DNA from: a bacterium
GTDB lineage: Bacteria > Hydrothermota > Tepidihabitantia > SM23-42 > JAOAFX01
DNA: 64,000 nt
Direction: 5' to 3'
NCBI GenBank assembly: GCA_049700315.1
Contig: JBNAVN010000001.1
Coordinates: 4,776 to 68,775 of the forward strand
Shown: positions 38,867 to 60,630 of the stretch, piece after piece
Layout of the letters: each line of letters begins with the position of its first letter
How positions within the stretch are numbered: the stretch's first letter is position 1
Translations under genes and position numbers: made by a program
Notes under the pieces: generated by a model
Told to the model about the DNA's origin: nothing
What the model saw: only the letters and a program-made list of their open reading frames with translations
Databases searched by the model: none

Positions 38867-38909
38867 ATGGTTAAATAAATTGAGTGAAATGGAAAAGGGT
38901 TGAATAAAA

Positions 38910-39008
38910 ATGGAAAAGAACAGTAAAGAAAAGAAAAAGTTTAAGACTTTTGAGGATTTAGAAATTTATAAAAAGGCAAGAGAGTTTAGGAGGTTTTATG
39001 AGCAATGA
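38910..39008 (+). pseudogene. Truncated N-terminal remnant (32 codons) of a four-helix-bundle protein gene
   Basis: MEKNSKEKKKFKTFEDLEIYKKAREFRRFYEQ* shares the (F)xDLEIY motif with the intact four-helix-bundle gene at 31054. It ends overlapping the copy-2 D start. Its AGGAGG serves as the D2 ribosome-binding site. Confidence 0.45.
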
Positions 39009-39685: not shown

Positions 39686-39716
39686 AAAAAGGGGGCTGAA
39701 AAAGCCCCCTTTTTTT
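39686..39716. terminator. Bidirectional rho-independent terminator between the convergent D2 and BNR-protein genes
   Basis: AAAAAAAGGGGGCT-GAAAA-AGCCCCCTTTTTTT. Confidence 0.75.
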
Positions 39717-39733: not shown

Positions 39734-41377
39734 TTAGTGGGTGACCACCAATTTGGCTGAAACAACCTTTTTGTCAGCCTTCAGCACAGCAATATAGGCA
39801 CCATTCGCAAGTTCACGGGTATCAAGTGAAGTGGTATAAAATCCAGCATTTCTATTGCCCTGGTCAATGGTCTGGACCAATCTGCCATCAACAGTGTAAA
39901 GATTAATTGAAACACTGCCTGATTTGGGTAAGGCATAGGAAATGCCAGTTTGATTGCGTACTGGATTGGGTGCAATACTTAGTGCAAGTTTCTTCGGTGT
40001 CTCGGTTCTGTTTTCAGCAATACCCACAATTGGATTCCTGCCAACATACCAGCGAGCAGGAGTCGCAGCTCCTCCATTATTGATGTTCCAGTAGAGATCC
40101 AGCAATGGATCTGCGATAGCACAGCCAAATGCAAAGAATAATTGTCCATTTCCTGCGGAATCAAGCCTCTTGGAAATCTGCCATAGACAGTTGTTGTGGT
40201 CAGTAATGGAACCGGTCAGGTTTCTTGGTGTTGACCAGGTAGCACCATTATTCGCGGAATAGTTATAATAGACATCCCAGAATGTATACTGACCTGTGCC
40301 ACTGCGCGGCTGACCAAATAGCGCCACCACATAATTACCTTCCGCAGCAACTGTTGGATAGAAATTCCGTGCATCAGTTGCAGTATTACCCACTTCTATA
40401 CAATTGGCACCTGAAGCCGTGGAAACATAGACCTTACCACGATAAGGATAATTGCCTGCACCATAATCATCACCATGCCAGTTATCAAAGATCAGAATCG
40501 GATTACCCGCATCGGTAACCGCAAGCTGGGTGTAAGCAATGATATTGCTCGGAAATGGATTGGGCCAGACCAGGTTGTAAGATTGCTGGGCACTCCAGGT
40601 CAGACCATCTGTTGTTGTCTTGTAGTAAACATTGAGTGCATCATCATAATAAAATACGTAGGCAATTCCGCCATTCAGATCAAAGCCCCAATAATTTGAA
40701 ACTGCTGGTGCAATCGTGCCACCGGCAAGTCTTGTAGTAAGGTCCGTGCTGTATGTGCTCCAGAGAATATTACCATTTTGTTCAACACCAACAAAGAGTA
40801 TGTTACCGTTCGGCAACTGCTTACCAGGGTTCTTATGGGTTCCCAAATTTCCTGTGCCCACATCTACTGGTGTATCCCAGAATGAAGAGAACCAGCCACC
40901 ACTCTCATATTGAGCACCCATTCCACCCCAGGCACCACCGATAAGATATGGAAATGAGATATGTGGGCCAGAACCATTTATTGAAGCCACTGCACCAGGA
41001 TACCGGGCTGGACCAAGATCACCTGCATAAACCTCAACATCAGTCAATGCGCCACTAAAAATGTTATCATTCTGCCATACATCAAGGTTGCCACTTGTGA
41101 CAAAATTTCTGCAGACAAATTCAACATAACCGTCACCCGGCTCATAAGCAAGACATTCTTGCATCTGGGTCCACATAGAATATTCGTTTGCTGAAGAATC
41201 GGCAACTTCAATATCTCTTGTGACCATTACCGGGACATGTTTGTCACAAGTACCTGTACCATCATCCATCTTTGCCCTGTCAATATTTGCGGGCACAGTA
41301 ACTGCCCAGATTACACAGGCAAAAACCATAATAATTGATAGTTTCTTCATTTTTCTCTCCTTTCTTTTATATTTCAT
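39734..41377 (-). CDS. T9SS cargo protein with BNR/sialidase-like repeats (probable glycosidase)
   Basis: Signal peptide. BNR motifs SxDxGxTW (TTDGLTWS, SANNGATWS). C-terminal T9SS CTD (AYIAVLKADKKVVSAKLVVTH). Confidence 0.65.
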   Translation of the reverse strand: MKYKRKERKMKKLSIIMVFACVIWAVTVPANIDRAKMDDGTGTCDKHVPVMVTRDIEVADSSANEYSMWTQMQECLAYEPGDGYVEFVCRNFVTSGNLDVWQNDNIFSGALTDVEVYAGDLGPARYPGAVASINGSGPHISFPYLIGGAWGGMGAQYESGGWFSSFWDTPVDVGTGNLGTHKNPGKQLPNGNILFVGVEQNGNILWSTYSTDLTTRLAGGTIAPAVSNYWGFDLNGGIAYVFYYDDALNVYYKTTTDGLTWSAQQSYNLVWPNPFPSNIIAYTQLAVTDAGNPILIFDNWHGDDYGAGNYPYRGKVYVSTASGANCIEVGNTATDARNFYPTVAAEGNYVVALFGQPRSGTGQYTFWDVYYNYSANNGATWSTPRNLTGSITDHNNCLWQISKRLDSAGNGQLFFAFGCAIADPLLDLYWNINNGGAATPARWYVGRNPIVGIAENRTETPKKLALSIAPNPVRNQTGISYALPKSGSVSINLYTVDGRLVQTIDQGNRNAGFYTTSLDTRELANGAYIAVLKADKKVVSAKLVVTH

Positions 41378-41452
41378 ATATCACCATAACCACCACATTG
41401 TGGTTGGCTTTTCTGCTATTATTTTTTATTATCGCATCACCTCCTTTTTTCT

Positions 41453-44101
41453 TTATTTAACCAGAAGCACCTTAATAATGAAGTTATGTTCACCAGTATG
41501 AACCCGCACAAAATAAACGCCAGACGCGCAACCATCTGGTAACCACAGAAAATCATTATTGCCTTTGGATAATCTGCCTTGATAAATCGTTGCGGTTTTT
41601 CTACCGGTGATATCAAAAACTTCAATTGCCCCTGTTATTTCTTTGTCGATTGAAAATTGAATATGCACAGAAGAATTCAAGTTGGCGGGCTGGGGCAATA
41701 CCTTCAAAAAACCAGAGATGGACTCTTTGTAATTTTCTTCAACACCCACAACATCCTGTTTGATAATCAATAATCCAGAATTGCCATCAGCAAGATAAAT
41801 CAGATTATTTCTATCATCAAAACTCGTAGCAGTACTGACCGAGAGCATATATCCAACTTCTGCGGGTGCTGATGGACTGGCAACATTTATCACCCTGATA
41901 CCACCTGCTGTTCCGTCAGCAACAAAAATGTGATTGTTGAAATACTGGACACCAGAAGCAGTTCCTGGCGTATCAAGAGAACCTAACAATACAAGGGTAT
42001 CAGAGTTTGATACATCAAAGACCTTAATTCCAGCCGTGCCATCTGCAGCATATACATAATTGCCTGCTTTTGCCACACTATATGCTATTCCATTCGTATC
42101 ATAATATCCTGTTTCAACTGGATTGGAAGGGGTTGAAACATCTATTATTCTCACACCTTTTGTAGCATCTGCAACATAGGCAAAGTTATTGGAAACTACA
42201 ACATCATAGGCAAACCCTGCGGTGTTGAATGTCCCGAGAATTACTGGACTTGCAGGATTTTGCACATTGACAATGACCAATCCTTGAGACCGAGCACAAA
42301 CATAGAGCGTATTGCCTGAAACAAATAAACCAAGCACATCATCTGCTAAACTTAATTTTCCTATCTGAACAGGATTTGTTGGATTGGACAACGAAAGAAT
42401 TCTCAGGGTATCTTCACGATCACCAATATATAAATACTGGGATGAGCCGGTAATCGTGATTGAATTGCCTGGCAGGCTTATCTGATTTACATAATCAGGC
42501 AATGTTGAATCACTCACATCCAAGACAATCAAACCTGCAGGACCATCCACAATATATGCATAATTACCCAGAACCACAACATCATTTGCCCAGCCTGGTG
42601 TGTCATAATGTCCGATCAGATTAACATTTGTAGAGTGGTTCAATTCTACTACCCGAGACCTGCCAAAACTTCCATCTGCAGCAAGCCGGGTGTTACCTGA
42701 ATTCAGGGCACTAATATTCACCCGGAGTGAGCAACCAACAACATCTGTACAGGTCCAGACATATTTACCAGTATTGGGAACATTGTTGGCAATCAATGTC
42801 CAGCGCAATGAATCGTAACTATCAAGATTATTACCCTTTGACCACCATAGTTTCATATGATCAATCTCAGTTCCTTCAGTATGCCAGCGAATCGCATATT
42901 TTATATTCTTGAACATTACCGGTATATTGTAAGTATCACCACCCCTTGGATAATCCAGGAAAACATTATTTGGATTTGAACCACCAGGTACAAGGGTTAC
43001 GACATAATCATAAGAATACACTCCATTATAATATGTCCACAGGGGCCAGAGCGGTTCATTGTTATCCCAAGTTGTATGGACAATGACAAATGTGTCACTA
43101 CTGGTAATCTCGTAACCAACACCAGTAATGGAATGATTAATATAATCAGACATTGGTGGATACCAGTAATAAAGAACATTCCAGTGACAGGGCCGCTGAC
43201 CATCAATCTCAGTTTTTATCCAGGAGAAAACATATTGGTTCCAGTTGCCACCCTGTGGTGAGGTGGCAGATGTAAATGAATAACTATTATATGTATTCGC
43301 AACGGTTAGCATACCAGGTCTGATATTACCAATCGTTGTGCCACCGGTCAGAGTATCAGTATTCATTGCGATAGCAAGTTCACGATTCGTATTGGCACAA
43401 TCATTCCATTCATTCTCAGGGTTGTCCCAGTGTGTGAAAAAATGATCAACAAGTTTTCCATAACCCCGATAATCCCAGTACCAGAACATCATAGAAGCAG
43501 CAGTTGGTGAACATCCATACACCCAGTCAATAAAAGGCACCGAATCAACATAACCACTTTGCAGGATTCTAAAATCATCAATCTCCAGATATCGCTCCCA
43601 CTTCTGCCTTGTGAGCGATTCAAGATTTGGATCAGACTTGCATTTTTCCAATTCCTCATTTAAGCGAATCTGTCCGTTTCGGACATTTACCAACATCTTT
43701 TTTCCATCTACATCAAAACCTGCATATTCTTCCCCTGCTCCAAAATAGTAGTAATGCTGGAATACCGGCTCACCAGAAATTTGCTTTCTCAAATTATCCA
43801 ATGCACGGTTCAGGAATTTCTCACAATATGGTGCACTGTGATATATTTCACCAACCGGTGATGTAGTATATCTTGCACCCATTATAATGGTTATACTATC
43901 CTTTCCATCTTGAAATACATAACCATGAGCATTGGGGCTTTCATCAATGCCAAAATAGGTTATGACATTACTCAACCTGTATTCTGAACCATATCTCTGT
44001 TCAACGAACTTATATGCCAATGTTTCAATTTTTTCTCTGGGTACAAATTCAGAACCCAGAACAATGCCCGCCATAATCAACAAAACAGAAAATTTCTTCA
44101 T
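41453..44101 (-). CDS. C10-family (streptopain-like) cysteine peptidase with N-terminal Spi-inhibitor-like prodomain, LVIVD beta-propeller repeats and T9SS CTD
   Basis: Catalytic-Cys region VYGCSPTAASMMFWYWDYRGYG. Tandem repeats of the pattern YVADxxxGLxIxDVSNPxxP. C-terminus GVYFVRVHTGEHNFIIKVLLVK. Confidence 0.7.
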   Translation of the reverse strand: MKKFSVLLIMAGIVLGSEFVPREKIETLAYKFVEQRYGSEYRLSNVITYFGIDESPNAHGYVFQDGKDSITIIMGARYTTSPVGEIYHSAPYCEKFLNRALDNLRKQISGEPVFQHYYYFGAGEEYAGFDVDGKKMLVNVRNGQIRLNEELEKCKSDPNLESLTRQKWERYLEIDDFRILQSGYVDSVPFIDWVYGCSPTAASMMFWYWDYRGYGKLVDHFFTHWDNPENEWNDCANTNRELAIAMNTDTLTGGTTIGNIRPGMLTVANTYNSYSFTSATSPQGGNWNQYVFSWIKTEIDGQRPCHWNVLYYWYPPMSDYINHSITGVGYEITSSDTFVIVHTTWDNNEPLWPLWTYYNGVYSYDYVVTLVPGGSNPNNVFLDYPRGGDTYNIPVMFKNIKYAIRWHTEGTEIDHMKLWWSKGNNLDSYDSLRWTLIANNVPNTGKYVWTCTDVVGCSLRVNISALNSGNTRLAADGSFGRSRVVELNHSTNVNLIGHYDTPGWANDVVVLGNYAYIVDGPAGLIVLDVSDSTLPDYVNQISLPGNSITITGSSQYLYIGDREDTLRILSLSNPTNPVQIGKLSLADDVLGLFVSGNTLYVCARSQGLVIVNVQNPASPVILGTFNTAGFAYDVVVSNNFAYVADATKGVRIIDVSTPSNPVETGYYDTNGIAYSVAKAGNYVYAADGTAGIKVFDVSNSDTLVLLGSLDTPGTASGVQYFNNHIFVADGTAGGIRVINVASPSAPAEVGYMLSVSTATSFDDRNNLIYLADGNSGLLIIKQDVVGVEENYKESISGFLKVLPQPANLNSSVHIQFSIDKEITGAIEVFDITGRKTATIYQGRLSKGNNDFLWLPDGCASGVYFVRVHTGEHNFIIKVLLVK

Positions 44102-44117
44102 TTTTATTCCTCTTTTA

Positions 44118-44155
44118 AGGGCGGGGTTCTGAGAAATTCAGAACCCCGCCCGATT
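44118..44155 (-). terminator. Strong GC hairpin just downstream of the porV-like gene
   Basis: GGGCGGGGTTCTGA-GAAAT-TCAGAACCCCGCCC. The T-run is on the + strand side only, so its function on the minus strand is uncertain. Confidence 0.4.
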
Positions 44156-44157
44156 TT

Positions 44158-45270
44158 TCAGAATCCAATAATCAGTCCAAGACGGTGGGTCGCTTTTAAC
44201 ACTCCCTTATTCATATAGGCGTAATCAATGCGCAATTCCCTTTCTGCCATCTTCAGATTGAATCCAACACCAGCACAGAGGTTATTCAGAAGCCACTCGG
44301 TATTTTCGCCCCATTTTGGATAGGTATACTTTTCTTGAGCAGAATCATACACTGGTTCAGCGCCGGTCATCGCCTTCATATAATCCGTGTTCAGATATGC
44401 CTTGTATCCTGCCCTCAGAAATATCGTATTCAGGTAGCCATACTCAAACCCGAGGTTTATGGTTTCGTAATTGTCATTCGGGTGATTCAGATCAAGGGCA
44501 ACTGTTAACTTTTGATTTTCATTTTCAACCGGATTCATTGCAAGACCAAACCTGAATATCAATGGTAGAGAAAATGGAGTTGCTTTCATAGAAACAGGAA
44601 TATCTTCATAATCCAGGGGTGAATCAGGAAACGGATCCTTAGAAGTATCCAATTGTCTGCCACCAAAGTTAATATCTGAGCCGAAATTAGCCATTGAGGC
44701 AGCAATTTTCAACCCCTTGAAACCAGTATTATAATGAATGCCAAAATCCGTACCGATTCCACTTGCTGACATATCCCAGATCATTTCCTGTATTGCCTTG
44801 ATTGTGAATCCAGCAGCAAGACGGTCAGTGAACATCCTTCCAAAGGAAATTCCAACAGCAAAATCAGAAGCATTGAAAAAGGTCCCGGTACCAGTATCTT
44901 CACGCACAGTTTTAGTATTTGGGTCGTCCACAGTTGTATATTCCATCTTGCCCATTGTCAAGGCAGTCAGGCTGATTCCGAGTGTTCCCATATTGGAAAG
45001 GGGAAGGACAACAGCAAGATATTCATGTCTTAAATCCGCAATCCATTCATTATGCTGTAGTGATAACTGACGGTCATTCAATATGCCCAGCCCAGCCGGG
45101 TTCCAGTAGGCGGCTGAGGCATCATCAGCAATAGCGACAAATGCCTCACCCATTGCTGCACCACGACCTACACCAATCTTCAAGAACTGGGCACCTGATG
45201 TCCCGAGTTTGGCAAAATCTGCAAACAGGGGAATCGCCAATATCAAGATTATTGTTAGGTACCTTTTCAT
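44158..45270 (-). CDS. porV: PorV/LptO-like (FadL-like) outer-membrane beta-barrel protein
   Basis: Signal peptide then GAQFLKIGVGRGAAMGEAFVAIADDASAAYWNPAGL, a motif shared by PorV and FadL-family barrels. 370 aa. Sits directly downstream of a large T9SS-CTD protein, as in porU-porV operons. Confidence 0.5.
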   Translation of the reverse strand: MKRYLTIILILAIPLFADFAKLGTSGAQFLKIGVGRGAAMGEAFVAIADDASAAYWNPAGLGILNDRQLSLQHNEWIADLRHEYLAVVLPLSNMGTLGISLTALTMGKMEYTTVDDPNTKTVREDTGTGTFFNASDFAVGISFGRMFTDRLAAGFTIKAIQEMIWDMSASGIGTDFGIHYNTGFKGLKIAASMANFGSDINFGGRQLDTSKDPFPDSPLDYEDIPVSMKATPFSLPLIFRFGLAMNPVENENQKLTVALDLNHPNDNYETINLGFEYGYLNTIFLRAGYKAYLNTDYMKAMTGAEPVYDSAQEKYTYPKWGENTEWLLNNLCAGVGFNLKMAERELRIDYAYMNKGVLKATHRLGLIIGF

Positions 45271-45279
45271 ATTTGCCTC

Positions 45280-48243: not shown

Positions 48244-48255
48244 CTTGGCCTCCTC

Positions 48256-51027: not shown

Positions 51028-51038
51028 TGCACACCTCC

Positions 51039-52073
51039 TTAATTAACCCTTACGGGTATAAGCCAGAATCTTGCTAATAATTGACTGGCAGGTTTCACAT
51101 AGATCAATCCGTCGGTTACGATCACTTCAATAACAAGATTTTTCACACCTGTGCCACTGATTCCAATCTTTCCTGAACCACCTGGCAATTGAACCTTCTT
51201 GCCATCCTGAATCGCAAAGAATGTGCAGAGATCACTCGTAATTGTCCCGGAAAGAGTAATTGCGATTGTCACTGAGTCACCAGCACTATACTCAAGTAGC
51301 GAATCTATTGAGCGGAAACGGTTCATTGCATGATGCGGATACAGTGTATCGGTATTACTCGCCCATACTGTATCAATTCTGGATGTGTTCTGGGAAGTCA
51401 ATATTGCGGTATAAATGTACGGAATACTGGCAGCACGATTCGGTAATCCATAATTACCGTAGGAAATTCTTTTCAAAATCCATTCCCGTGGTTCCTTGAT
51501 TTTCAACACTGAATCGCCAAGTTCTTCATCCCATACTTTTTCTTTTACTGGTTCCACATACAGATGACGCAGTCCTTCTACAGTGATGGTATCATAAGAA
51601 TAATATCCACCAGTGCTATCCACGATCACAATGTCAAGTTTTTTGTTTGTATCACCCTGCCAGAAATAATAACCTTTGTACAAAGTATCATAATGGACCT
51701 CCTGTATGAGGTTAAATGTATCGTAAAGATACACTGTGCAGGTCGTATCTTTTGTATACCAGAGGTCCTTAAAACGGGAACTTGATGCAATCTTGTCATG
51801 AAGACTATCTACATGCTGTTTAACAAGCACTGATTCAGTCTTAAAGTATGAATCTGCCACTGGAAATGTAACTGCTGCAAGTGTTATCGGAATGTAACTA
51901 TCCAGAAAGACATCGTCGGTCTTAAGAAACTCCGAATGTGCATCAAGCACAGCATTGATCAATGTGTCATCTCTTGGTGTCCCGTCGTAGAAACCTTCTG
52001 GTGGCTCATTACCACAACTAACAAATGCTAATGCCAATATTGCCAACAGGCAAAGCCAGTTCATCCTATTCAT
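51039..52073 (-). CDS. Hypothetical lipoprotein
   Basis: Lipobox LAFVSC. 344 aa. Confidence 0.5.
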   Translation of the reverse strand: MNRMNWLCLLAILALAFVSCGNEPPEGFYDGTPRDDTLINAVLDAHSEFLKTDDVFLDSYIPITLAAVTFPVADSYFKTESVLVKQHVDSLHDKIASSSRFKDLWYTKDTTCTVYLYDTFNLIQEVHYDTLYKGYYFWQGDTNKKLDIVIVDSTGGYYSYDTITVEGLRHLYVEPVKEKVWDEELGDSVLKIKEPREWILKRISYGNYGLPNRAASIPYIYTAILTSQNTSRIDTVWASNTDTLYPHHAMNRFRSIDSLLEYSAGDSVTIAITLSGTITSDLCTFFAIQDGKKVQLPGGSGKIGISGTGVKNLVIEVIVTDGLIYVKPASQLLARFWLIPVRVN

Positions 52074-52201
52074 TTATGCCTCCTTTGCTTTGTTTCTTCA
52101 ATATTTATTTTTTGTCTCTTTTTTGCTTTTATTTCTCACCCCCTTTTTTTGCTAATATTATATATCTATTATAATAAAAAAAAAGAATTTGTCAAGGGTA
52201 T

Positions 52202-52834
52202 TCATTTGAATTTGAACTCTATCTTTCTAAAAACCCAAACCCTGACAAGTTTGTCCCGTTGTTTTGCCGGCGTAAACTTATATTTCCACACGCTTGCAAC
52301 TGCTGCTTCATCAAGGAGTTGATTACCGCTGGATTTGACAACCTGAACATCAATCACACTACCATCAATATTCACCAAGAATTTCACCTGCAGACTACCT
52401 TCAATGCCTGCCCTTTTTACCAGTTCAGGCCATTCAGGGGGTGGCATTGATATGGGCTGTGGTTTTACCTCTACTTTAAAATAGGGAACCACTTCAATCT
52501 CCGGACCTGTAGGCTGGGTTCTTATAATGTCTTCCCGGAATTCAGTCGCTGCAATTGTTTCAACTGCTTCTTCAGCAACTTCGGTTGCGGCTGCTGCCAC
52601 TGCAACCTTTGGTCTTTCCACTGGTGGTGGCTCTTCATATTTCTCAATCTCAGCGGAGATTTGCTCAACCATCGTTACAATCTCTTTTCTCAACTTATAA
52701 GGTTCAACCTCAGCATAGGGTAAAAACAGAAATAACAGGATTAGAATGATTATGCCCAGGAGCATACCAGTGCGGAAATATACACCATACATCAATTTAT
52801 GGTCGCGCATATTAACCTCCAAATTCAGTGGCAA
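52202..52834 (-). CDS. tonB: Energy transducer TonB family protein
   Basis: N-terminal TM, Pro/Glu/Ala-rich linker, C-terminal TonB domain (GIEGSLQVKFLVNIDGSVIDVQVVKSSG). Confidence 0.8.
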   Translation of the reverse strand: MPLNLEVNMRDHKLMYGVYFRTGMLLGIIILILLFLFLPYAEVEPYKLRKEIVTMVEQISAEIEKYEEPPPVERPKVAVAAAATEVAEEAVETIAATEFREDIIRTQPTGPEIEVVPYFKVEVKPQPISMPPPEWPELVKRAGIEGSLQVKFLVNIDGSVIDVQVVKSSGNQLLDEAAVASVWKYKFTPAKQRDKLVRVWVFRKIEFKFK

Positions 52835-53231
52835 AAGTTATCTTAAATGCCCGAGACTCTTTCAGTTGATCAAGAACAACATCAACAGTGCCATATTCAA
52901 TATTTTCATCAATGTTGAGAATCGTAACCAGCTCTGGATTTTCTGCAATCTTGGGGAGCATTTTTGTACTCACCCTTTCCTTTGGAACAAGACTATCATC
53001 AATAAACACCCTGCCGTTATTATCAACCCAGACATGGGTGATATTTCTTCGGATCAAGATTCTTTCAGTAGATTTTGCCTTGGGTAAAATAAGTTTAAGA
53101 TTGAGTGCAGTTGCTCTGAACACGGTTGTCACCATAAAGAAAAGAATCAACAAGAATGCAACATCAGCAGTTGATGCAGTGGGAATGTCCGGTGTTTTTG
53201 TAAATCTTCTTATAATACTCTTACGCATCAT
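52812..53231 (-). CDS. exbD: Biopolymer transporter ExbD/TolR (paralogue 2)
   Basis: 139 aa. N-terminal TM with ADVAFLLILFFMVTTVF motif. Confidence 0.8.
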   Translation of the reverse strand: MMRKSIIRRFTKTPDIPTASTADVAFLLILFFMVTTVFRATALNLKLILPKAKSTERILIRRNITHVWVDNNGRVFIDDSLVPKERVSTKMLPKIAENPELVTILNIDENIEYGTVDVVLDQLKESRAFKITFATEFGG

Positions 53232-53692
53232 TCCTCACTGGTTGGTATTAAACTTATCTTATTTGCCCTCAACTCCCTGCCATCCTGGGTGATAACCCGA
53301 CACAGTTTTATCTGGTCAAGCACTGAAATCATTGCCTGATATCTTGCATCCTTACTTGTTCTCAATGAAACCACAAGCAGGGTATCCCGTTCAAGAAGTT
53401 TTTCTTCAACTATCCGGCGGACTTCAGAGTATTGCTGTGGAGAAATATCAATTCCATCATATCCGGAAGCCTTTAATTTCAATGCGCCTTCAGGATTGAT
53501 CAGAATTGAAACAACATTTTCTGGTTTGACCTTGGTCTCGGTCTGGGATTTTTCAGGCAGGAGCATTTTTATACCTTTTTCCCGGGTAAATACTGTGGTT
53601 GTCATAAAGAAGATGATTATCAAGAATGCGATATCGCCCATTGAGGCAGTAGGGATGATGGCGCTTATTTTTTTCTTCGCCCTCAACTCCAT
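53228..53692 (-). CDS. exbD: Biopolymer transporter ExbD/TolR (paralogue 1)
   Basis: 154 aa. MGDIAFLIIIFFMTTTVF. Confidence 0.8.
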   Translation of the reverse strand: MELRAKKKISAIIPTASMGDIAFLIIIFFMTTTVFTREKGIKMLLPEKSQTETKVKPENVVSILINPEGALKLKASGYDGIDISPQQYSEVRRIVEEKLLERDTLLVVSLRTSKDARYQAMISVLDQIKLCRVITQDGRELRANKISLIPTSEE

Positions 53693-54316
53693 CTATTTTT
53701 TCCTTTTCTGATAATGTTCAATCATATAGTCAATCAAGCCCGCAGCAACCTCTTCCATATCCTTTGTGTATCCATCAACCTTACCGGAGAAGAGAATGTG
53801 CAATATTGCCAGGGGGGTTGCGATAATCAAACCCCATTTGGTTGTAATCAATGCCTCAGAAATACCACTGGCAACGATTGTTGGTTCAACCTCGCCTGCT
53901 GCTGCTATTGCTGCAAATGCACGAATCATTCCTGTAACAGTACCCAAAAATCCTAAGAATGGTGCAACCGTAGTCAAACCTGCTAATAAAGCCATACCCC
54001 GGTCCAAAAATCCCAGTTCAATTGCTGCAGCACGGGCAGCAACCTCTTCCATTGCATCCTTACCTTTGTCTGCCTTTTGCAGAATCTCTCTGGCAATTTT
54101 TGCGGCCGGAGATGTTGTATGGTCACACAGCGCAATACCAGCATCAACACCCTGGGCATCAATTGTAGAAATGAGTTTCTCCAGGAAACTCTTGGGATTT
54201 AATCTTATCTTTATCAAAAGTGAAAAAAGCCGCTCAAGTATTATGCCCAGTGCCAGTATAATGCACACCAATAATAACCACATCACACCACCACCAATTG
54301 TAAATTCCCTAACCAT
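53693..54316 (-). CDS. exbB: MotA/TolQ/ExbB proton-channel family protein
   Basis: 207 aa. Three TM helices. Conserved GLLGTVTGMIRAF region. Confidence 0.85.
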   Translation of the reverse strand: MVREFTIGGGVMWLLLVCIILALGIILERLFSLLIKIRLNPKSFLEKLISTIDAQGVDAGIALCDHTTSPAAKIAREILQKADKGKDAMEEVAARAAAIELGFLDRGMALLAGLTTVAPFLGFLGTVTGMIRAFAAIAAAGEVEPTIVASGISEALITTKWGLIIATPLAILHILFSGKVDGYTKDMEEVAAGLIDYMIEHYQKRKK

Positions 54317-54378
54317 AAGATAAGCCTCCTTTCAATTATTATTATAGATTATATTAAATTTGCTGACAATGTCAAGCC

Positions 54379-54729
54379 TCATTTTGAACTTGCACTATAA
54401 TAGAGTACTCCGCCGATAAGCGGGAAAAGACCCGCACCAAAAAACAGAAAACTCTCATACCGTGCAAGCACGAGAGAACGCACAATCAAATCAAAAAGGT
54501 CACCTGGACCGGCAACGCTCAGAAGTGGAAAATAGAAGACAATACGGTAGATATGGAATACGGCAACTGCAATCAGAAATACACAACCGATCACAGGGAA
54601 AATCCATATTCCTTTACCACCAATTAAATTCAACAATCTTTTCAGAATCAAACCAAAGATTATCAATGAAACAATGGCGAGCAGTATCGCCACCATGAAG
54701 ATGACTTCTGCCAAAATATCAGCCCTCAT
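54379..54729 (-). CDS. Small polytopic membrane protein (hypothetical)
   Basis: 116 aa with three hydrophobic helices. Confidence 0.45.
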   Translation of the reverse strand: MRADILAEVIFMVAILLAIVSLIIFGLILKRLLNLIGGKGIWIFPVIGCVFLIAVAVFHIYRIVFYFPLLSVAGPGDLFDLIVRSLVLARYESFLFFGAGLFPLIGGVLYYSASSK

Positions 54730-54805
54730 TATACCTCCTTGTTAACATGGTTAACCAATATAGTCCAGCGTCTCAACCCAAACCCAATGACCATTTTGTA
54801 GTACT

Positions 54806-55174
54806 TCATTTCCCTTTAGTGACTCCATAGAATCTCAAATTTGCTACGAGAGAGAGAATACCTGAAAGAAAGAATAGACCATATGCAAGGTAGTTAATGC
54901 CGCCCTTCGGAAGCATCATTTTTCCACCAATGCCGCAGAATATCAATTGGATCAATGCAAAAAGTAAAATACCTGTGGGTGCAATCACCATAAACTGCCA
55001 GTTTGTTTTTTCACCAAGCACAATCTCATATCTGCGGGCAATTATGCCCAAAAATATGAACGCAAACCATAACAATACCGCACCCAGAACCAATACATAG
55101 TTCGGGAAAATTGCCAGCGCTTGATAAGTAGAAGGTTCAATCCCGAATGGTGCGGAAAATAAAATCAATCCCAT
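54806..55174 (-). CDS. Small polytopic membrane protein (hypothetical)
   Basis: 122 aa with four hydrophobic helices. Confidence 0.45.
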   Translation of the reverse strand: MGLILFSAPFGIEPSTYQALAIFPNYVLVLGAVLLWFAFIFLGIIARRYEIVLGEKTNWQFMVIAPTGILLFALIQLIFCGIGGKMMLPKGGINYLAYGLFFLSGILSLVANLRFYGVTKGK

Positions 55175-55204
55175 AAAACCTCCTTTTCCTAAAACTCAGA
55201 TGTA

Positions 55205-55792
55205 TCACTTCAGTTTCCCCAAAAGTTTATTCGTCAAATCTTTGCCTTTTGTCGGACCAACAATCATACCTGCTGCCTTGCCCAGGGCAAAGATGAATCT
55301 CCTTATGTCTTCTTCATAAAGTTCATCTGCTTTTATTCTCTGCGCCTTGAGCTGATTCTGATATACCCTTTCTGTAAAATCACCCAAATAATCCTGAATA
55401 ACTGCTTTTAGTTGGTCAAGAAATTCTGGCGCAAATTTCTCTTTTGGTCTTTCTGCTTCAACAACCTCGGTCTTTTGCTTGGTTCTGATCTCCTTAATTG
55501 CATTCAAGATAGTATCCAGTATTTCTGTCTGGGTTGTAGCATAAATGTGTCCAATCATTTCATTTTCAGCAATGTCACAAAGCAGACTTTGATTACTACC
55601 AACGATTTCAATGGTATCAATCTTAATACCACCTACTGCACCAATGGATTCAAAAAGAACAGTTCCAGTTTGTGAAAACTTTGACTTTTTCTGTTCACCA
55701 CCCTTAGAAGTAATCGTCTCTCCATCTTTCATTACAATAAAAGGCAAACCCAAACCTCGTTCTTCAATCTTGTTCAGTATCTCTTCATTCAT
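55205..55792 (-). CDS. Hypothetical protein, possibly roadblock/LC7-like N-domain
   Basis: 195 aa. The segment GAVGGIKIDTIEIVGSNQSLLCDIAENEMIGHIY weakly resembles the roadblock fold. Confidence 0.4.
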   Translation of the reverse strand: MNEEILNKIEERGLGLPFIVMKDGETITSKGGEQKKSKFSQTGTVLFESIGAVGGIKIDTIEIVGSNQSLLCDIAENEMIGHIYATTQTEILDTILNAIKEIRTKQKTEVVEAERPKEKFAPEFLDQLKAVIQDYLGDFTERVYQNQLKAQRIKADELYEEDIRRFIFALGKAAGMIVGPTKGKDLTNKLLGKLK

Positions 55793-55803
55793 CTCTTACC
55801 CCC

Positions 55804-56589
55804 TTATATCTGCTTCATTTTTTCAATAACTGCCTGGACTTTTACCCGTGCCTGAGATGATCCCATTTCTTCAACTGCCTTTTTAACAAGAAAGTCAATC
55901 ACAGTACGCAGTATCTGCACAATATCATCCTCTTTTTCAGGTGGCGGAGTCTGCTTGAATTCTATTTTTTCACCAATAATACCTATCATTGGCAATATAT
56001 CAGTAGCAATCACCCCAAGCCCCTGATTCAGAATACCGAGCCAGTGTTCCTTTTTCCCACCACTTCCAAATTCTTCAACCAGCAGGTTTATCTGGGTCAA
56101 TTTAGAATTAATGCCCCGGGACAATTGTATTTCAACCTTTGGTGGTACCGGCGGAGGTTTGACTTCTTCAACAACCTTCTCTTCAATTACCTTTTCCTCA
56201 ACCTTCTCCTCAATTTTTTCTTCAACCTGAATTTCAGGTTTTTCTTCAACCTTTTCTTCTATCTTTTCCTCTTTGACCGGAACCATCTGTTCCTTAATTC
56301 TTTCAATAATATCCAACGGTCTTTCATCTCGTACCACCTCAACTCCAAGGTATTTGCCGCTATGGATAAAAATTATCAAACGATTTGCTCCATAACACAT
56401 AGAAACAAACTTTATCTCACCTAAGTTCAGTGTGTTTTTTATTACCTCAGCAGCCGAGGAGAAAAATGCAGTAAGGTCACCAAGGGGCGAAGTTGATGAA
56501 CCCTTGACTTTTTCTATTGAACCATCCTCGGCATTAACCACTGCATAATTGATTATTCCCGGAATCTTATCTAATATTTCCATTCCCAA
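55804..56589 (-). CDS. Roadblock/LC7 (MglB-like) domain protein with E/K-rich repeat linker
   Basis: N-terminal ~100 aa roadblock-like. Then (EEKxE)n repeats and PPPVPP. Confidence 0.55.
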   Translation of the reverse strand: MGMEILDKIPGIINYAVVNAEDGSIEKVKGSSTSPLGDLTAFFSSAAEVIKNTLNLGEIKFVSMCYGANRLIIFIHSGKYLGVEVVRDERPLDIIERIKEQMVPVKEEKIEEKVEEKPEIQVEEKIEEKVEEKVIEEKVVEEVKPPPVPPKVEIQLSRGINSKLTQINLLVEEFGSGGKKEHWLGILNQGLGVIATDILPMIGIIGEKIEFKQTPPPEKEDDIVQILRTVIDFLVKKAVEEMGSSQARVKVQAVIEKMKQI

Positions 56590-56596
56590 CTCCTTT

Positions 56597-57433
56597 CTAT
56601 TTCAATCCTGCATAGAGTTCATCCATCTTCTTTTTGAATAGCAATTTTCCATAAAGCTGTGGTCCTTCGCTGTTTACGAATTGCTCAAATTTTTTTCTGA
56701 ACTTATCAATCTGCTCCTGAGTCAATGGATTTTGCACAGTAATCTCCAGGGTATCTTCATCAACCTTAAATGCTGAACCCAATGATTGATTTTCGGGTTC
56801 CATTTCCGACCATCTTCTGTACCAGTTTAATCCATTCTTCCCAAATGTTTTGAAAAAAACATTAAAATAATGAATCAAAACCGCCATCAATCTTTCCGCT
56901 TCTCTGGGGTCGTAAATAAGCCCCTGTTCTTTGAGCCAGATAATCGTCTTTATTGTTTCATAGCCACCTAATTGAGATTGGGCAATGATTTCATTTAATG
57001 TTCTCTTGCCATCAACCATTGCCAGAACCTGCCAATCTGTACGCCGGAGCGCAACTGCCGAAGGTAATTCTTTTGTTGATTTTGCCAATACCGCATCCCG
57101 CGGTGGCAAGCGGTCTTTGATCTTTTCAAATTCAACACGCCTCTTTTCAATATTTTCATTTAACTTTCCCACATCTTCAGATATTGTCTGTTCAATTGCC
57201 CTTATCCCCGTTTCAAATGTCGCATGTTCAAGCCGGGCAAGTGTAAGATTAAGAAGTGATTCAAATCCCTTTTCCATACCATCAGTGGCATGAACAATAT
57301 ATCCTTCCTTCACATATACTTCACCATTCAATTCTCCACTCACCTTTAACAGACCAGTCTTTTTCAATTGAACAAGAAAATTTAATATATCAAAAAGATT
57401 AAATTCTTTCAAATTAATTTCAATATCTATCAT
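56597..57433 (-). CDS. DUF4388 domain protein
   Basis: N-terminal LFDILNFLVQLKKTGLLKVSGELNGEVYVKEGYIVHA matches the DUF4388 signature. Confidence 0.6.
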   Translation of the reverse strand: MIDIEINLKEFNLFDILNFLVQLKKTGLLKVSGELNGEVYVKEGYIVHATDGMEKGFESLLNLTLARLEHATFETGIRAIEQTISEDVGKLNENIEKRRVEFEKIKDRLPPRDAVLAKSTKELPSAVALRRTDWQVLAMVDGKRTLNEIIAQSQLGGYETIKTIIWLKEQGLIYDPREAERLMAVLIHYFNVFFKTFGKNGLNWYRRWSEMEPENQSLGSAFKVDEDTLEITVQNPLTQEQIDKFRKKFEQFVNSEGPQLYGKLLFKKKMDELYAGLK

Positions 57434-58051
57434 TTATATCACTCCTAACCAGTTATGCAAAAGAAAATAGACTCTACCGATAAACAACGATACACGAGCC
57501 ATAATTGTATAACCGAAAGATGCGCCAAACGATACCATCATAAACCAGATACCGATTTTTGCCCCAGTGCCCAGGGGACCTTTGTGTTCTTTGGAAAAAT
57601 AGAAATAAAGGAGTGTAAAGATTACACCAAGAATAATCAAAATATTGGAAAATGTAGTAAACACAGAGATATTTTTCAAAGGTAGAAAGGTTGCCTGTAA
57701 TTGCGGGAAAATATCACCTTGAACAATCTGAGTTATGGATACGGCCATCGCTATGCCCATGGTAAATGTGAGGGGAATGCGAATCATCCAGGAGATTTTG
57801 GGGATGAGCGGAGCAAACATCAAAAAACCTATAAAAATGGGAAAGATATTGTACCATTGTCCCTTCTGAAACAAGGGTTCAAAGAGGTTGGGCCAGGCAA
57901 AATCATACCAGAGCACGACTGCCCAATATCCTGCCGAAACACCAACAAAAATATTTTCAGCAATCTTATAAAAAGGATTATCCTTGTACAAAAATGAGTA
58001 TATTGCCAGGGTCAGCAATGCAGCAATCCATATACCTATTATATTTATCAT
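57434..58051 (-). CDS. Module copy 3, protein D
   Basis: 205 aa. FLYKDNPFY, SWMIRIPL, SKEHKG, VMARVSLFIGR. Abuts the DUF4388 gene with no gap. Confidence 0.8.
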   Translation of the reverse strand: MINIIGIWIAALLTLAIYSFLYKDNPFYKIAENIFVGVSAGYWAVVLWYDFAWPNLFEPLFQKGQWYNIFPIFIGFLMFAPLIPKISWMIRIPLTFTMGIAMAVSITQIVQGDIFPQLQATFLPLKNISVFTTFSNILIILGVIFTLLYFYFSKEHKGPLGTGAKIGIWFMMVSFGASFGYTIMARVSLFIGRVYFLLHNWLGVI

Positions 58052-58869
58052 TTTTTTCTCCGCTGGTAAACCAATATCACATTGCCAAGCACAATAAATC
58101 CAACAAGGAGTAGATGAACAATAGATTGGGCATCCATTCCCCTCAAACCTCTGCCCTTTCTGTCAACAAGTGTTTCATATTCTGCGGCACCTTTTAATCC
58201 GCCCAAAAGCCCAACCAACTGTCCTGAACTCAGATAGGCATATTGTTGTGGTGCCATAATCGCAGTAGTTGCACCACAAATCGGCACACCGTAACGGGCG
58301 TGGAAATAAATTATCCAGTGGAGAATACCAGGATCACCCGCAGAAAAGGTCATGACGGCCTTGATGTCCTTTGCTGATTTTACTGCCCTGCCCAAAGCAA
58401 ATGAGTCTATCAGAATACCTTGATAATCAACTTTTATCACATCTGAAAAACTGCGCCCCAAACTCAAAAGCATTACTGCACCACCAGGCCGATAACCAAC
58501 ATTGATATAGTCTTCACCATATCTTTTGTTATAAATGCGGGCAAGACTGCTCAGGGCAATATTTCCAAGTTCACTACCAGCAGGCCATAAGCCCATCATA
58601 TATATTTTCAAATCTCTGCGAAAACAATGTTCAATTACTGCTTCAGTTGCCGGATAAAGTTCTGCCTCACTGCCCGGGTCATAATCAGTAGAAATAAGTA
58701 TTATAGAACCGCGGGGCAATGATTCAATTTTATCATAGACATTTTTAACCGGTTTCGTAATATCAACCGGTAGATTCAATGGCACAATCATCGGAATGAT
58801 AACTGCCAGTGCAACGAGAAGAAAAATAATTCTACGATCAAGACGGGCAAGAGATTCAATGATATTCAT
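58048..58869 (-). CDS. Module copy 3, protein C
   Basis: 273 aa. LARLDRRIIFLLVALAV, DYDPGSEAELYPATEAVIEHCF. TM at both ends. Confidence 0.8.
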   Translation of the reverse strand: MNIIESLARLDRRIIFLLVALAVIIPMIVPLNLPVDITKPVKNVYDKIESLPRGSIILISTDYDPGSEAELYPATEAVIEHCFRRDLKIYMMGLWPAGSELGNIALSSLARIYNKRYGEDYINVGYRPGGAVMLLSLGRSFSDVIKVDYQGILIDSFALGRAVKSAKDIKAVMTFSAGDPGILHWIIYFHARYGVPICGATTAIMAPQQYAYLSSGQLVGLLGGLKGAAEYETLVDRKGRGLRGMDAQSIVHLLLVGFIVLGNVILVYQRRKK

Positions 58870-58900
58870 AATTTAGTGCTTCCGCAAAACGATAGACTTT

Positions 58901-59524
58901 TTATTCATGCCCTCCTCCCATATAACTTCTCTCAATCCCTAAAAGAACGCGCAATGCCATGGATATTAATCCTAAGTCAATGCCAAACAAGATACCCCGC
59001 TTTGCTGCGGTATTGGGAACCTGCATTATCCACTCAACAAGGTCAGGAAATTTGTGCCAGATCAAATAGCCAATAGGAATTCTCCCAATCATCACAATTA
59101 CCGCGGCGGTCAGAAGCAGTGTTGCCTCAGGTGTCTTTGCCCTGAATGCCCTGAATGATGCTGACGCAACAAAAAAGGCAAGCAAAGAAAACATTGTTGC
59201 ACCAAGTGGAACCTGAAAATTTTCAAAGAGGTACAAAAATATCCTTGAATCCCTGCCACCAATGAATCCAGCACCAAGCATAATACCAAGAAAGAAAAGT
59301 AGAATTATGCTGTATTGCCAGTCCCGTAATTTGCGTTGAATTTTATCAATGTTTATTCTTATTAGATTGAATATCCCAATAAAGACAAAAAACGCAGCAA
59401 CACCCTGATACCACAACTGAAGCAATTGAGAACTATCCTGGGCAAATTTCGCAGGGATAAAAAAGGTTATCAGCATATAAAATCCACAACCGAAAACGAT
59501 TATCAAAGGTATAATTATCTTCAT
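58901..59524 (-). CDS. Module copy 3, protein B
   Basis: 207 aa. ASASFRAFRAK, EWIMQVPNTAAKRGILFG, LGIERSYMGG. Confidence 0.8.
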   Translation of the reverse strand: MKIIIPLIIVFGCGFYMLITFFIPAKFAQDSSQLLQLWYQGVAAFFVFIGIFNLIRINIDKIQRKLRDWQYSIILLFFLGIMLGAGFIGGRDSRIFLYLFENFQVPLGATMFSLLAFFVASASFRAFRAKTPEATLLLTAAVIVMIGRIPIGYLIWHKFPDLVEWIMQVPNTAAKRGILFGIDLGLISMALRVLLGIERSYMGGGHE

Positions 59525-60600
59525 TCTATCGTATTGAAAAGGCTTATAAAAAACTGCCAGTTCAAAAGCTGGCTTAAAACCCCAATGATTATTACACTGA
59601 TGAATATCAACTTTCCGAGATCCTGCCCTTTTAATGAACCTAACTGAACTGGTTCTTGAGAAAGATAAGCACTGGCTGCATACAATTCTTCACCAAGCAG
59701 TGTAAAATCACATGCCGCTACGAAGAATGGTAATTGATCAGACATTGCAGTGCCGGCAATCTGAATTGCCCCTGTTGAATGACCGGTTTCAGCAAGAATC
59801 AATGACTCAGCATAGAATGTGCCAAGGTATAAATTTGTTGCTGGTCTTTCACGAACCATAATACCATCCACTGCTGATACATAAGCAAATTGGTCATCTG
59901 TTATATAACGGATATTATCTGAATTATACCAATCAGAACGACCCATTCTGGTTGCTGATTCCTTTACAACCTGTTGTGCCATCGTCATTGCCATTGAATG
60001 ACAGGTCGGTACATATAAGGGTGTACCATATTCAGCAGTCTTCTCCGCAACCCGTGACAGAATGCTCATTGAGGCAATTGTCTGAGGGTCGTCAATATCC
60101 ATAATTCCCGGTACATATAAAACAGGCTTTCCCATTTCGGTTGCCCTGCCAATTGCCTCTTCAATGGCACTGAGCGCCGGTATTTTTCTGATAAACAAAT
60201 TACCACCTTTCCTTGCTTGGCTAATGTAAAAGATAACTGACCCAAAAAGGATTATTATGCATATTGCCAGCGGCAGGCGATACAAATTGAAATATTGAAC
60301 AACAGGTTTTATAGGACCGACAAGGTTGGAAAAAACCGTGTTATTATCAACGATACCAGCAATTTTGTAATAGTATGTTGCACCGGGTATTAAGTTATTA
60401 TCCTGATATGATTTCTCTTTCCCGTCAACCTCATCAATTTTCTCAAAAATTCCTTCAGGTTCAACACCCCTGAATATTTCAATCGTTCTATACTCAGTGT
60501 CAAACTGCCATTTCAGGGTTATGCTTGAACCATCATCATTGGGCGTGTCAAAAACCCTTAAATCAATGTTATATATAAGAAACAAACTAAATAAAAACAT
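59521..60600 (-). CDS. Module copy 3, protein A (one FN3-like domain + TM + conserved cytoplasmic domain + C-terminal TM)
   Basis: 359 aa. RKIPALSAIEEAIGRATEMGKPVLYVPG, AESLILAETGHSTGAIQIAGT, QLPFFVAACDFTLLGEELYAASAY. Confidence 0.8.
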   Translation of the reverse strand: MFLFSLFLIYNIDLRVFDTPNDDGSSITLKWQFDTEYRTIEIFRGVEPEGIFEKIDEVDGKEKSYQDNNLIPGATYYYKIAGIVDNNTVFSNLVGPIKPVVQYFNLYRLPLAICIIILFGSVIFYISQARKGGNLFIRKIPALSAIEEAIGRATEMGKPVLYVPGIMDIDDPQTIASMSILSRVAEKTAEYGTPLYVPTCHSMAMTMAQQVVKESATRMGRSDWYNSDNIRYITDDQFAYVSAVDGIMVRERPATNLYLGTFYAESLILAETGHSTGAIQIAGTAMSDQLPFFVAACDFTLLGEELYAASAYLSQEPVQLGSLKGQDLGKLIFISVIIIGVLSQLLNWQFFISLFNTIE

Positions 60601-60630
60601 CTAATAATTTTATTCAAAATAAATGCAATG

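Follow-up and report, generated by a model that had tools for sequence, protein, structure and literature searches.

The DNA analysed here is a stretch of 64,000 nucleotides (the window) from contig JBNAVN010000001.1 of the bacterial assembly GCA_049700315.1, positions 4,776 to 68,775 of the forward strand. The subject of this report is a gene string running from position 60600 of the window down to position 39734, in which one copy of a four-gene membrane-protein module (A–D) is followed by the genes of a TonB motor, a TonB-dependent receptor (TBDR), a PorV-family barrel and type IX secretion system (T9SS) cargo. Listing of the open reading frames (ORFs) gives 19 genes, all on the minus strand and with intergenic gaps of -23 to 128 nt, in the order A3, B3, C3, D3, a PATAN protein, the roadblock-type proteins Rb1 and Rb2, the small membrane proteins m1 and m2, ExbB, two ExbD paralogues, TonB, a lipoprotein, the TBDR, a secreted protein of 987 aa (P987), the PorV-family barrel, an LVIVD protein and a protein of 547 aa (P547); unless marked otherwise, all coordinates given below for the string refer to the minus strand. 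A preliminary description of the window had reported a same-strand string of about 21 kb with short gaps and this order, which the ORF listing confirms, and its labels DUF4388, ExbB-ExbD-ExbD-TonB, TBDR with CarboxypepD_reg domain and PorV-like barrel are borne out by family scans. The same scans assigned no family to B3, C3, D3, Rb1, Rb2, m1, m2, the lipoprotein or P987. The string recurs in the same order on many independent contigs, which is more than chance.

The minus-strand run extends upstream to 63777 through GT2, RsmG-like, MazG-like, PSP1-like and FtsB-like genes, which lie outside the conserved block: orthologous loci differ in their upstream flank and the block begins at A. At the other end, a bidirectional intrinsic terminator (39690..39715, no strand assigned; GGGGGCT-loop-AGCCCCC with T runs) stands between the string and the convergent D2 gene. 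Three copies of A-B-C-D are present in the window, at 31494-34746 (+), 35033-39618 (+) and 57434-60600 (-), and are 31-61% identical protein by protein; copies 1 and 2 converge on the minus-strand string that copy 3 opens.

Transcription Units

The string is a conserved supra-operonic locus of separately promoted units and not a single operon. Conserved promoters, a hairpin and the terminator together delimit five units, namely (1) A3-B3-C3-D3-PATAN-Rb1-Rb2-m1-m2, (2) ExbB-ExbD-ExbD-TonB, (3) lipoprotein-TBDR-P987-PorV, (4) the LVIVD protein and (5) P547, and across orthologous loci the median gaps are -11 to 37 nt inside units and 62-131 nt at unit borders. On the coding strand, a consensus scan detected TTGACA-16-TATAAT in perfect form twice, and both sites coincide exactly with the largest gaps of the string, one before exbB (54348..54375) and the other before the lipoprotein gene (52168..52195). 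The exbB promoter matches the consensus at 12/12 positions in 13 of 18 orthologous loci, and the lipoprotein promoter does so in nine of 17, with 11/12 in a further seven; control gaps reach at most 9/12.

The promoter of the A3 operon (60607..60634; TTGACA-16-TAAAAT) overlaps the stop codon of the upstream GT2 gene with its -35 box. Its -10 box is separated from the A3 ATG by 6 nt, and a Shine-Dalgarno sequence is absent. The same layout (11/12 match, 5-6 nt from the start codon) is kept in loci L081, L083, L084 and L085, where the upstream genes differ. A conserved promoter this close to a start codon that lacks a Shine-Dalgarno sequence suggests that the A3 mRNA is probably leaderless and that A is the true start of the block. 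The lipoprotein gene, on the other side of the motor unit, has a 5' untranslated region (UTR) of ~95 nt that carries a conserved stand-alone Shine-Dalgarno-like motif, AAAGGGGGTGA. Among the 12 orthologous UTRs compared, the motif (AAAGG(G/A)GGTGA; ~52136-52147 in the window) lies 20-45 nt past the -10 box in most, while the UTRs range from 50 to 223 nt across orthologues and show no other conservation; the motif resembles a STAB-SD mRNA stabiliser. A scan of the region with Rfam gave no match, and hence no riboswitch in this UTR. Directly 3' of the PorV-family gene, a GC-rich stem-loop (44119..44151) probably marks the 3' end of the lipoprotein-TBDR-P987-PorV unit, a strong hairpin of differing sequence being found at the same position in nine orthologous loci.

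The preliminary description had held that terminators between the units, together with a clear nutrient annotation of the receptor/lipoprotein pair, would refute its inference of a shared motility or secretion apparatus. Conserved promoters and a hairpin do divide the string, whereas no clear nutrient annotation was obtained for the receptor/lipoprotein pair.

Over the whole window, eight perfect TTGACA-16/17-TATAAT sites occur. At least six stand just upstream of a same-strand gene start (489, 4780, 8594, 14552, 52195 and 54375); within ~200 nt of those at 20242 and 27531, no ORF start is listed. In the source organism, operons may be marked by consensus σ70 promoters.

Conservation and Gene Order

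An alignment of A searched against 185,579 species genomes matched at least 600 stretches, 588 of the 600 listed encoding relatives of A, and the best 80 loci were analysed. A-centred counts are direct listings of these 80 loci, and P987-centred loci were obtained by scanning metagenome contigs with a P987 alignment. Represented among the 80 A loci are Zixibacteria, Fermentibacteria, Cloacimonadota, WOR-3/Stahlbacteria, Ignavibacteria, Eisenbacteria and further groups.

Loci from WOR-3/Stahlbacteria match the window order as far as their flank allows (L027 to the lipoprotein gene, L047 to the TBDR), and Rb1 homologues that are 53-72% identical lie in the full A-to-P987 string with three different upstream flanks. 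In Fermentibacteria the order is A-D-TBDR-ExbB-ExbD-ExbD-TonB, then a P987-like protein (collinear profile match, E 1e-13 to 1e-17), and Eisenbacteria-like A-centred loci read A-D-(LplA)-TBDR-P987-PorV-PorV. Seen from P987, one arrangement reproduces the WOR-3 order, convergent A–D copies included, exactly as in the window; a second, on Eisenbacteria-like contigs, is (A-D)x2-TBDR-P987-PorV-PorV-ExbB-ExbD-ExbD-TonB; and a third is a stand-alone lipoprotein-TBDR-P987-PorV-Peptidase_C11 module. The TBDR gene is immediately upstream of P987 in 40 of the 52 loci that have at least 3 kb of upstream sequence, a PorV-family gene follows P987 immediately in 23 of 39 with enough downstream sequence, and A–D lies upstream on the same strand in 19 of the 29 P987 loci with at least 9 kb upstream.

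The receptor is recognisably the same in each setting. Alignment of the window TBDR with the receptors beside A–D in Fermentibacteria and Eisenbacteria-like loci is full-length, at 28-30% identity and E 1e-89 to 1e-100. Unrelated TBDR paralogues would be expected to align far less strongly, and we infer that the three sets of receptors form one TBDR subfamily.

Since these partners are found together in at least three gene orders across three phylum-level lineages, functional coupling explains their association better than inherited synteny, and the conclusion is supported that A–D belongs with the genes for Exb/TonB, the receptor and PorV and does not merely adjoin them. The preliminary description had offered both a larger apparatus shared by A–D with Exb/TonB and an ordinary TonB uptake locus lying next to A–D by accident; the co-localisation upholds the link and speaks against the accident.

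The stand-alone five-gene module was observed in loci L113-L146 (e.g. L117, 6047-16054), in housekeeping surroundings and with a CTD-like tail (C-terminal domain of T9SS cargo) on its Peptidase_C11, and represents a minimal form of the outer-membrane part.

The A–D Module

A3 (59521..60600) matches Pfam DUF6754 with 2e-117 and 391 bits. Hydropathy and charge predict a signal-like N-terminus, a periplasmic Fn3 domain, a transmembrane (TM) helix, the cytoplasmic DUF6754 domain and a C-terminal TM helix; an AlphaFold model was confident for Fn3 and poor for the DUF6754 domain, and sequence and fold searches of the PDB returned only Fn3 matches. B3 (58901..59524) has ~6 TM helices, C3 (58048..58869) a soluble domain of ~210 aa, probably periplasmic, between two TM helices, and D3 (57434..58051) is a polytopic membrane protein with at least four helices. 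None of the three belongs to a known family, and no recurrent Pfam match was found among 32 diverse members of the C family or 31 of the D family. B follows A directly in all 80 A-centred loci, in which the order A-B-C-D is fixed and about a third of which hold two to three tandem copies, and the A family comprises at least 8000 matches (clusters at 90% identity). Read from these predictions, A–D may be an inner-membrane complex of ~15 helices with a periplasmic Fn3 domain (from A) and soluble domain (from C) and a cytoplasmic DUF6754 domain. No mention of DUF6754 was found in the literature searched.

Apart from A–D, m1 and m2, the locus encodes no polytopic inner-membrane protein, and family scans detected no ABC or MFS permease in it. 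Provided that uptake needs no gene from outside the locus, the sole candidates for the inner-membrane step are A–D, m1 and m2. In a rough neighbour-joining (NJ) tree of A, which is weak evidence, A3 groups with the PATAN-linked copies and near the receptor-linked copies of Fermentibacteria, apart from A1 and A2. Neighbours of A–D in other phyla include genes for glycine cleavage, acyl-CoA dehydrogenases and MutL-family (PF13941) proteins, which lend the module a peptide/amino-acid flavour that is suggestive only.

Several further observations concern other settings of the module. A2 is a protein of 707 aa with an extra N-terminal part of ~350 aa that contains a further Fn3-like segment. Before copy 1 in the window (27726-31497, plus strand) lie genes for a barrel-like outer-membrane protein of 547 aa, a Big_5 lipoprotein and a four-helix protein of the 23S-rRNA-IVP type; the barrel and IVP proteins also precede the A–D array in L063, and L084 (1769-4634) has a Big_5 protein beside one of 645 aa whose gene diverges from A. 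In ~16 loci from Fermentibacteria, Zixibacteria and other groups (L001, L003-L008, L019, L023, L036, L041, L042, L051 and L080 among them, none of which is the window), the gene immediately upstream of A–D, or diverging from it, codes for a MutL-family actin-fold ATPase (PF13941, ~616 aa), together with conserved partners of 375 aa, 133 aa and 145 aa that have no family, and this constitutes a second recurrent neighbour set of A–D.

The TonB Motor and the Receptor

The motor genes encode an ExbB/TolQ-family proton channel subunit (53693..54316; Pfam MotA_ExbB, 1.7e-25), two ExbD paralogues (53228..53692 and 52812..53231; Pfam ExbD, 3e-20 and 2e-17) and TonB (52202..52834), which has an N-terminal TM helix, a Pro/Glu-rich spacer and a TonB_C domain (1.5e-19) and whose true start is likely the ATG at 52810. 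The ExbD paralogues are 31% identical and both keep the TM Asp (MGDIAFLIIIFF in the first, ADVAFLLILFF in the second), which we take to be the counterpart of E. coli D25. Scores fall short of the NCBIfam equivalog cutoffs (TolQ 83.7 vs 221, ExbB 62 vs 206, TolR 37 vs 127), and the subunits are divergent members; they are assigned to ExbBD rather than TolQR because the TonB and TBDR genes adjoin.

The lipoprotein (51039..52073), whose lipobox was read in the sequence, belongs to no known family, and its gene is always immediately upstream of the TBDR gene, the pair being kept in WOR-3-type and group-2 loci. The TBDR itself (48256..51027) comprises a CarboxypepD_reg domain, followed by a TonB-box-like segment, EKVTVVA, spotted by eye, a Plug (35 bits) and a barrel (98 bits). 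Assignment to SusC/RagA was rejected (TIGR04056, 70.3 bits vs a cutoff of 368), as was assignment to Oar, no Oar-specific model having matched. As judged from domain content, the Exb-TonB-TBDR set is a canonical TonB system.

P987, the PorV-Family Barrel and T9SS Cargo

P987 (45280..48243) is a secreted protein without a Pfam family. Its N-terminal domain is novel, DxDxDG-type loops and a PPPPP-Fn3 segment are present, and the C-terminus is a CTD-like β-sandwich. Its family comprises 348 representatives at E<=1e-30, with collinear homologues. A search of the PDB with the P987 profile gave nothing meaningful, and the CTD models TIGR04183 and PF18962 do not match; the only C-terminal match is a weak one of the last ~70 residues to the C-termini of PorZ and PorU. 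Among six aligned homologues, three of them without the C-terminal part, no Cys occupies an invariant column.

The identity of P987 with either of these proteins was considered and rejected: as PorU it lacks a Peptidase_C25 match and reaches 12.7 bits against 420 for NF033707, over the C-terminal ~55 residues only, and as PorZ it reaches 20.9 bits against 260 with no β-propeller signature. The preliminary description had placed a 987 aa T9SS-CTD protein at the PorU position, of which the PorZ/PorU-like C-terminus stands, weakly, but not the identification as PorU. A special link between A and P987 through their Fn3 domains was likewise discarded, the similarity being generic only (hhalign E=5.5e-4); an iterated P987 profile that had drifted onto the Fn3 domain of A was not used.

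Downstream of P987, the barrel (44158..45270) is a member of the PorV family by NCBIfam PorV_fam (NF033709, 202 bits vs a cutoff of 90) and lies below the equivalog cutoffs of PorV (51.8 vs 250), PorQ (86.7 vs 220) and PorV2 (89 vs 325). PorZ and PorU are T9SS proteins that stay bound to PorQ and PorV. The resemblance of the P987 C-terminus to theirs leads us to propose docking on the PorV-like barrel, and by analogy with PorU and PorZ the T9SS probably exports P987, and a retained CTD probably anchors it to the barrel. Literature searches on PorV2/PorU2, and on WOR-3 with T9SS or TonB, gave nothing relevant.

The last two genes encode proteins with T9SS CTDs, as had been described. The LVIVD protein (41453..44101) combines an LVIVD β-propeller (1.8e-40), a weak papain-like domain and a type A CTD (TIGR04183, 31 bits vs 23); its Peptidase_C39_2 match is sub-threshold (1.9e-4, 22.5 bits vs 24), and a GCSPTAAS motif is present. 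P547 (39734..41377) likewise ends in a type A CTD, matching Por_Secre_tail (34.6 bits) and TIGR04183 (36.2 bits vs 23), and has no further match in Pfam, NCBIfam or the PDB. Their enzymatic labels did not hold: the supposed C10 peptidase has no C10 match, showing instead the β-propeller and the weak C39-like domain, and for the supposed BNR glycosidase-like protein no BNR or glycosidase match was found in Pfam, NCBIfam or the PDB, only one degenerate Asp-box. A CTD-bearing cysteine peptidase follows the PorV-family gene both here, where it is weakly C39-like, and in the stand-alone modules, where it is Peptidase_C11 (2e-47), a clue that the substrate may be protein or peptide. Elsewhere in the window, two more large secreted proteins end in a cargo-type CTD-like C-terminus (8749-11901, plus strand, and 25650-27317, minus strand), one of them subtilisin-like by eye, making the window rich in T9SS-type cargo.

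PATAN and Roadblock-Type Proteins

The PATAN protein (56597..57433) is soluble and matches Pfam PF14332 (DUF4388/PatA_N) with 36.9 bits against a gathering score of 25; PatA_N is called in orthologous loci as well. In Rb1 (55804..56589), a linker that varies and is rich in E/K/P joins an N-terminal domain of roadblock/LC7 fold to a conserved domain of helices at the C-terminus. In its AlphaFold model, built from a 32-homologue alignment (pLDDT 77), the N-terminal domain has the order α-β-β-α-β-β-β-α, the linker is disordered and the helical C-terminus is modelled with confidence. Foldseek ranks Ragulator/LAMTOR, archaeal Roadblock and dynein LC7 highest in the PDB (E 1e-5 to 1e-4, probability 1.0); on this model, Rb1 has the roadblock/LC7 fold. 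Sequence searches with Rb1 and Rb2 (Pfam including Robl_LC7, NCBIfam and PDB; single sequences and profiles, E<=10) gave no match. Rb2 (55205..55792) is soluble, has no family match, resembles Rb1 in layout and follows it directly in all loci compared, and its hhalign similarity to Rb1 is weak (E=0.058); a roadblock fold is no more than plausible for it. The preliminary description had counted two roadblock proteins; modelling bears out Rb1, and Rb2 is only weakly similar to it.

The C-terminal ~100 aa of the PATAN protein match the C-terminus of Rb1 weakly (hhalign, 98 columns, E=0.004), a hint that both proteins carry a helix-hairpin-helix domain of ~100 aa; on iteration, the PATAN and Rb1 family profiles merged. 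The Rb1 family is small, with 190 clusters; among the best 120 listed, all taxonomic labels read either candidate division WOR-3 or just 'bacterium'. Outside WOR-3-type loci, PATAN and roadblock genes were detected in a single unclassified metagenome-assembled genome (MAG; L008), and not in the Fermentibacteria and Eisenbacteria-like clusters that keep the A–D/TBDR/TonB link. The small membrane proteins m1 (54806..55174; 3-4 TM helices), which is kept in WOR-3-type loci, and m2 (54379..54729; 2-4 TM helices) complete the A3 unit, m2 being its last gene.

PATAN domains are reported to be protein-binding modules on motility motors (bioRxiv 10.1101/2021.06.11.447907). By analogy, the PATAN and roadblock proteins could plausibly act as regulatory adaptors on the cytoplasmic side of A–D. 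No Ras-like GTPase of the MglA kind was found, either in the window or in 165 related loci with ±10 kb of flank, a scan of all ORFs of these loci for the G1/G3/G4 motifs returned an EngB-like protein only, and among the gliding models of NCBIfam only GltG responded, with 15 bits against a cutoff of 650 and on the generic TonB_C part.

Discussion

The reading of the locus that we favour, in which belief and doubt are about evenly balanced, is that of a station in the outer membrane, energised by TonB and bearing a surface protein docked on PorV, for which A–D would be the inner-membrane partner; the role of such a station would probably be the uptake of peptides or protein fragments. Gene content, unit structure, conservation and cross-lineage co-localisation are observations; we infer the direction of transport, the substrate, the docking of P987 on a PorV-like barrel and whatever role A–D has. 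In the proposed mechanism, unit 1 would supply the A–D inner-membrane complex, joined in WOR-3 by the soluble PATAN/roadblock-type adaptors and two small membrane proteins, unit 2 (ExbB-ExbD-ExbD-TonB) would be the proton-motive-force motor, and the lipoprotein, TBDR, P987 and PorV-family barrel of unit 3 would form the outer-membrane station. Secreted or surface enzymes, including the T9SS cysteine-peptidase/β-propeller protein encoded downstream, would process a polymer, probably protein, TonB would open the receptor to the resulting fragments, and A–D, as cognate inner-membrane partner, would import them or couple to the station.

A number of observations weigh against this reading. The TBDR falls below every NCBIfam subfamily cutoff and carries no substrate-specific annotation, A–D shows no detectable similarity to a transporter or any other known family, with DUF6754 poorly modelled, and PATAN and roadblock proteins are unusual in uptake loci. 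Most A–D loci have no receptor or Exb genes within 10 kb; the receptor subfamily is downstream of A in only ~11 of the 80 A-centred loci, by estimate roughly a quarter of those with enough downstream sequence, so that the coupling is not obligatory at the level of the locus. The stand-alone TBDR-P987-PorV modules have neither A–D nor Exb genes nearby, and in one WOR-3-type locus (L093) the Exb unit alone is absent. Lastly, L081 (CP070686.1, a complete genome whose string lacks the Exb unit) and L082 (a Logan contig) encode an identical A protein. One continues with m1-m2-ExbB, the other with m1, an ORF of 72 aa, an epimerase and glycosyltransferases, a difference that reflects either rearrangement between strains or mis-assembly, located exactly where two units meet.

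A bolder interpretation of the same parts, which we regard as unlikely, is that A–D, the Exb-TonB motor, the TBDR, P987 and the PorV barrels form an undescribed trans-envelope machine of candidate phyla related to the Fibrobacterota-Chlorobiota-Bacteroidota (FCB) group (WOR-3, Fermentibacteria, Eisenbacteria-like and others), in which TonB energy would serve not simple nutrient import but, for example, the mounting or moving of a PorV-docked protein or the export of CTD proteins, under the control, in WOR-3, of cytoplasmic PATAN/roadblock adaptors.

TonB-powered export or surface display is a further reading, and one that we judge decidedly unlikely: the receptor and PorV-like barrel would mount P987, and perhaps other CTD proteins, with A–D as inner-membrane/periplasmic feeder, along an Oar/PopC-like or T9SS-alternative route energised by ExbB-ExbD-ExbD-TonB. 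The near invariance of the TBDR-P987-PorV trio (adjacencies of 40/52 and 23/39) and the CTD cargo genes downstream of it fit this reading, the presence of Fn3 in both A and P987 would fit it too, although that similarity is generic (hhalign E=5.5e-4), and there is a precedent in a CarboxypepD_reg-type TBDR that is needed for protein secretion (PMC6434023). The receptor, however, has an ordinary Plug and a TonB-box-like segment, and it matched no Oar-specific model.

The association might, just as improbably, be one of independent neighbours, a TonB uptake locus with T9SS cargo beside an unrelated A–D operon, held together by inherited synteny. Each unit does have its own strong promoter, the Exb unit has been lost elsewhere with no disturbance of the rest, and most A–D loci and one P987 lineage have no other partner nearby. 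Inherited synteny alone, however, does not predict at least three gene orders in different phylum-level lineages, nor is it easily squared with a conserved block whose upstream border falls exactly at A while the flanks vary, or with an A tree, weak as that evidence is, that places A3 with the PATAN-linked copies, near the receptor-linked Fermentibacteria and apart from A1 and A2.

A gliding or surface-motility machine driven by the proton-motive force, with Exb as an AglRQS-like motor, roadblock proteins as MglB-like polarity regulators and the outer-membrane proteins as a Glt-type platform, was raised in the preliminary description and is very improbable: the roadblock fold of Rb1, the binding of PATAN domains to motility motors as reported in the preprint cited above, a possible adhesin role of P987 and the unspecific combination of one MotA-like with two TolR-like genes would accommodate it, but TonB and a plug-containing receptor follow directly downstream of the Exb genes, two exbD genes per TonB locus are normal in Bacteroidota, as reported in Flavobacterium and Bacteroides, no MglA-like GTPase accompanies the locus or its 165 relatives, the gliding models score far below cutoff and on TonB_C, and PATAN/roadblock genes are missing from the Fermentibacteria and Eisenbacteria-like clusters. 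For the whole envelope system, uptake is more likely than gliding.

The locus gives an unstudied and very widespread module, three of whose four proteins are without a Pfam family, its first concrete functional context, in which it stands with a TonB motor, a single receptor subfamily and a protein that probably docks on PorV. The fixed trio of TBDR, CTD protein and PorV-like barrel appears to be undescribed and ties TonB-dependent transport to T9SS-type surface anchoring. Import of protein fragments, if true, would help to explain how uncultured WOR-3 and Fermentibacteria-type bacteria feed; export or movement of surface proteins, if that were true, would be a new use of the TonB motor. In addition, the conserved near-perfect promoters, one of them giving a probably leaderless mRNA, provide a usable operon map for an uncultured phylum.

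Comparison with Known Systems

Among described systems, the SusCD/RagAB-type loci of Bacteroidota with T9SS hydrolases such as gingipains share with the window the lipoprotein and TBDR pair, the CarboxypepD_reg extension on the receptor, the ExbB-ExbD-ExbD-TonB motor and the CTD-bearing secreted peptidases encoded alongside. The receptor of the window, in contrast, is no member of SusC/RagA, and its lipoprotein precedes the receptor and has no similarity to SusD/RagB. A fixed large CTD protein and a PorV-family barrel belong to the operon, PATAN/roadblock proteins are attached, and the candidates for inner-membrane proteins are only the uncharacterised A–D, m1 and m2. The pairs PorU–PorV and PorZ–PorQ are alike in that a PorV/PorQ-family barrel gene stands directly after that of a large secreted protein with a PorZ/PorU-like C-terminus. 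P987, however, has neither the C25 peptidase nor the PorZ β-propeller, the barrel is below the PorV and PorQ equivalog cutoffs, and the pair is joined to a TBDR, which is not known for T9SS components.

The Agl–Glt machinery of Myxococcus with MglA/MglB resembles the locus in its TolQ/ExbB-like channel with two TolR/ExbD-like subunits, in a roadblock-fold protein nearby, and in the union of TonB-like periplasmic proteins and outer-membrane barrels within one system. The locus differs in having a bona fide TonB and a plug-containing receptor, with no MglA GTPase or Glt homologues, and in contrast to MglB its roadblock proteins bear an extra C-terminal domain and were seen only in WOR-3-type loci and the one unclassified MAG. 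Oar, a Myxococcus TBDR required for the secretion of PopC (PMC6434023), likewise has a CarboxypepD_reg-type domain at its N-terminus, is functionally linked to a secreted protease and depends on ExbBD-TonB; no specific similarity between it and the window receptor was found, and it is not known to be linked to PorV-like barrels or DUF6754 modules. Set beside these systems, the locus is best described as a variant of the TonB-dependent locus built around an uncharacterised and very widespread module.

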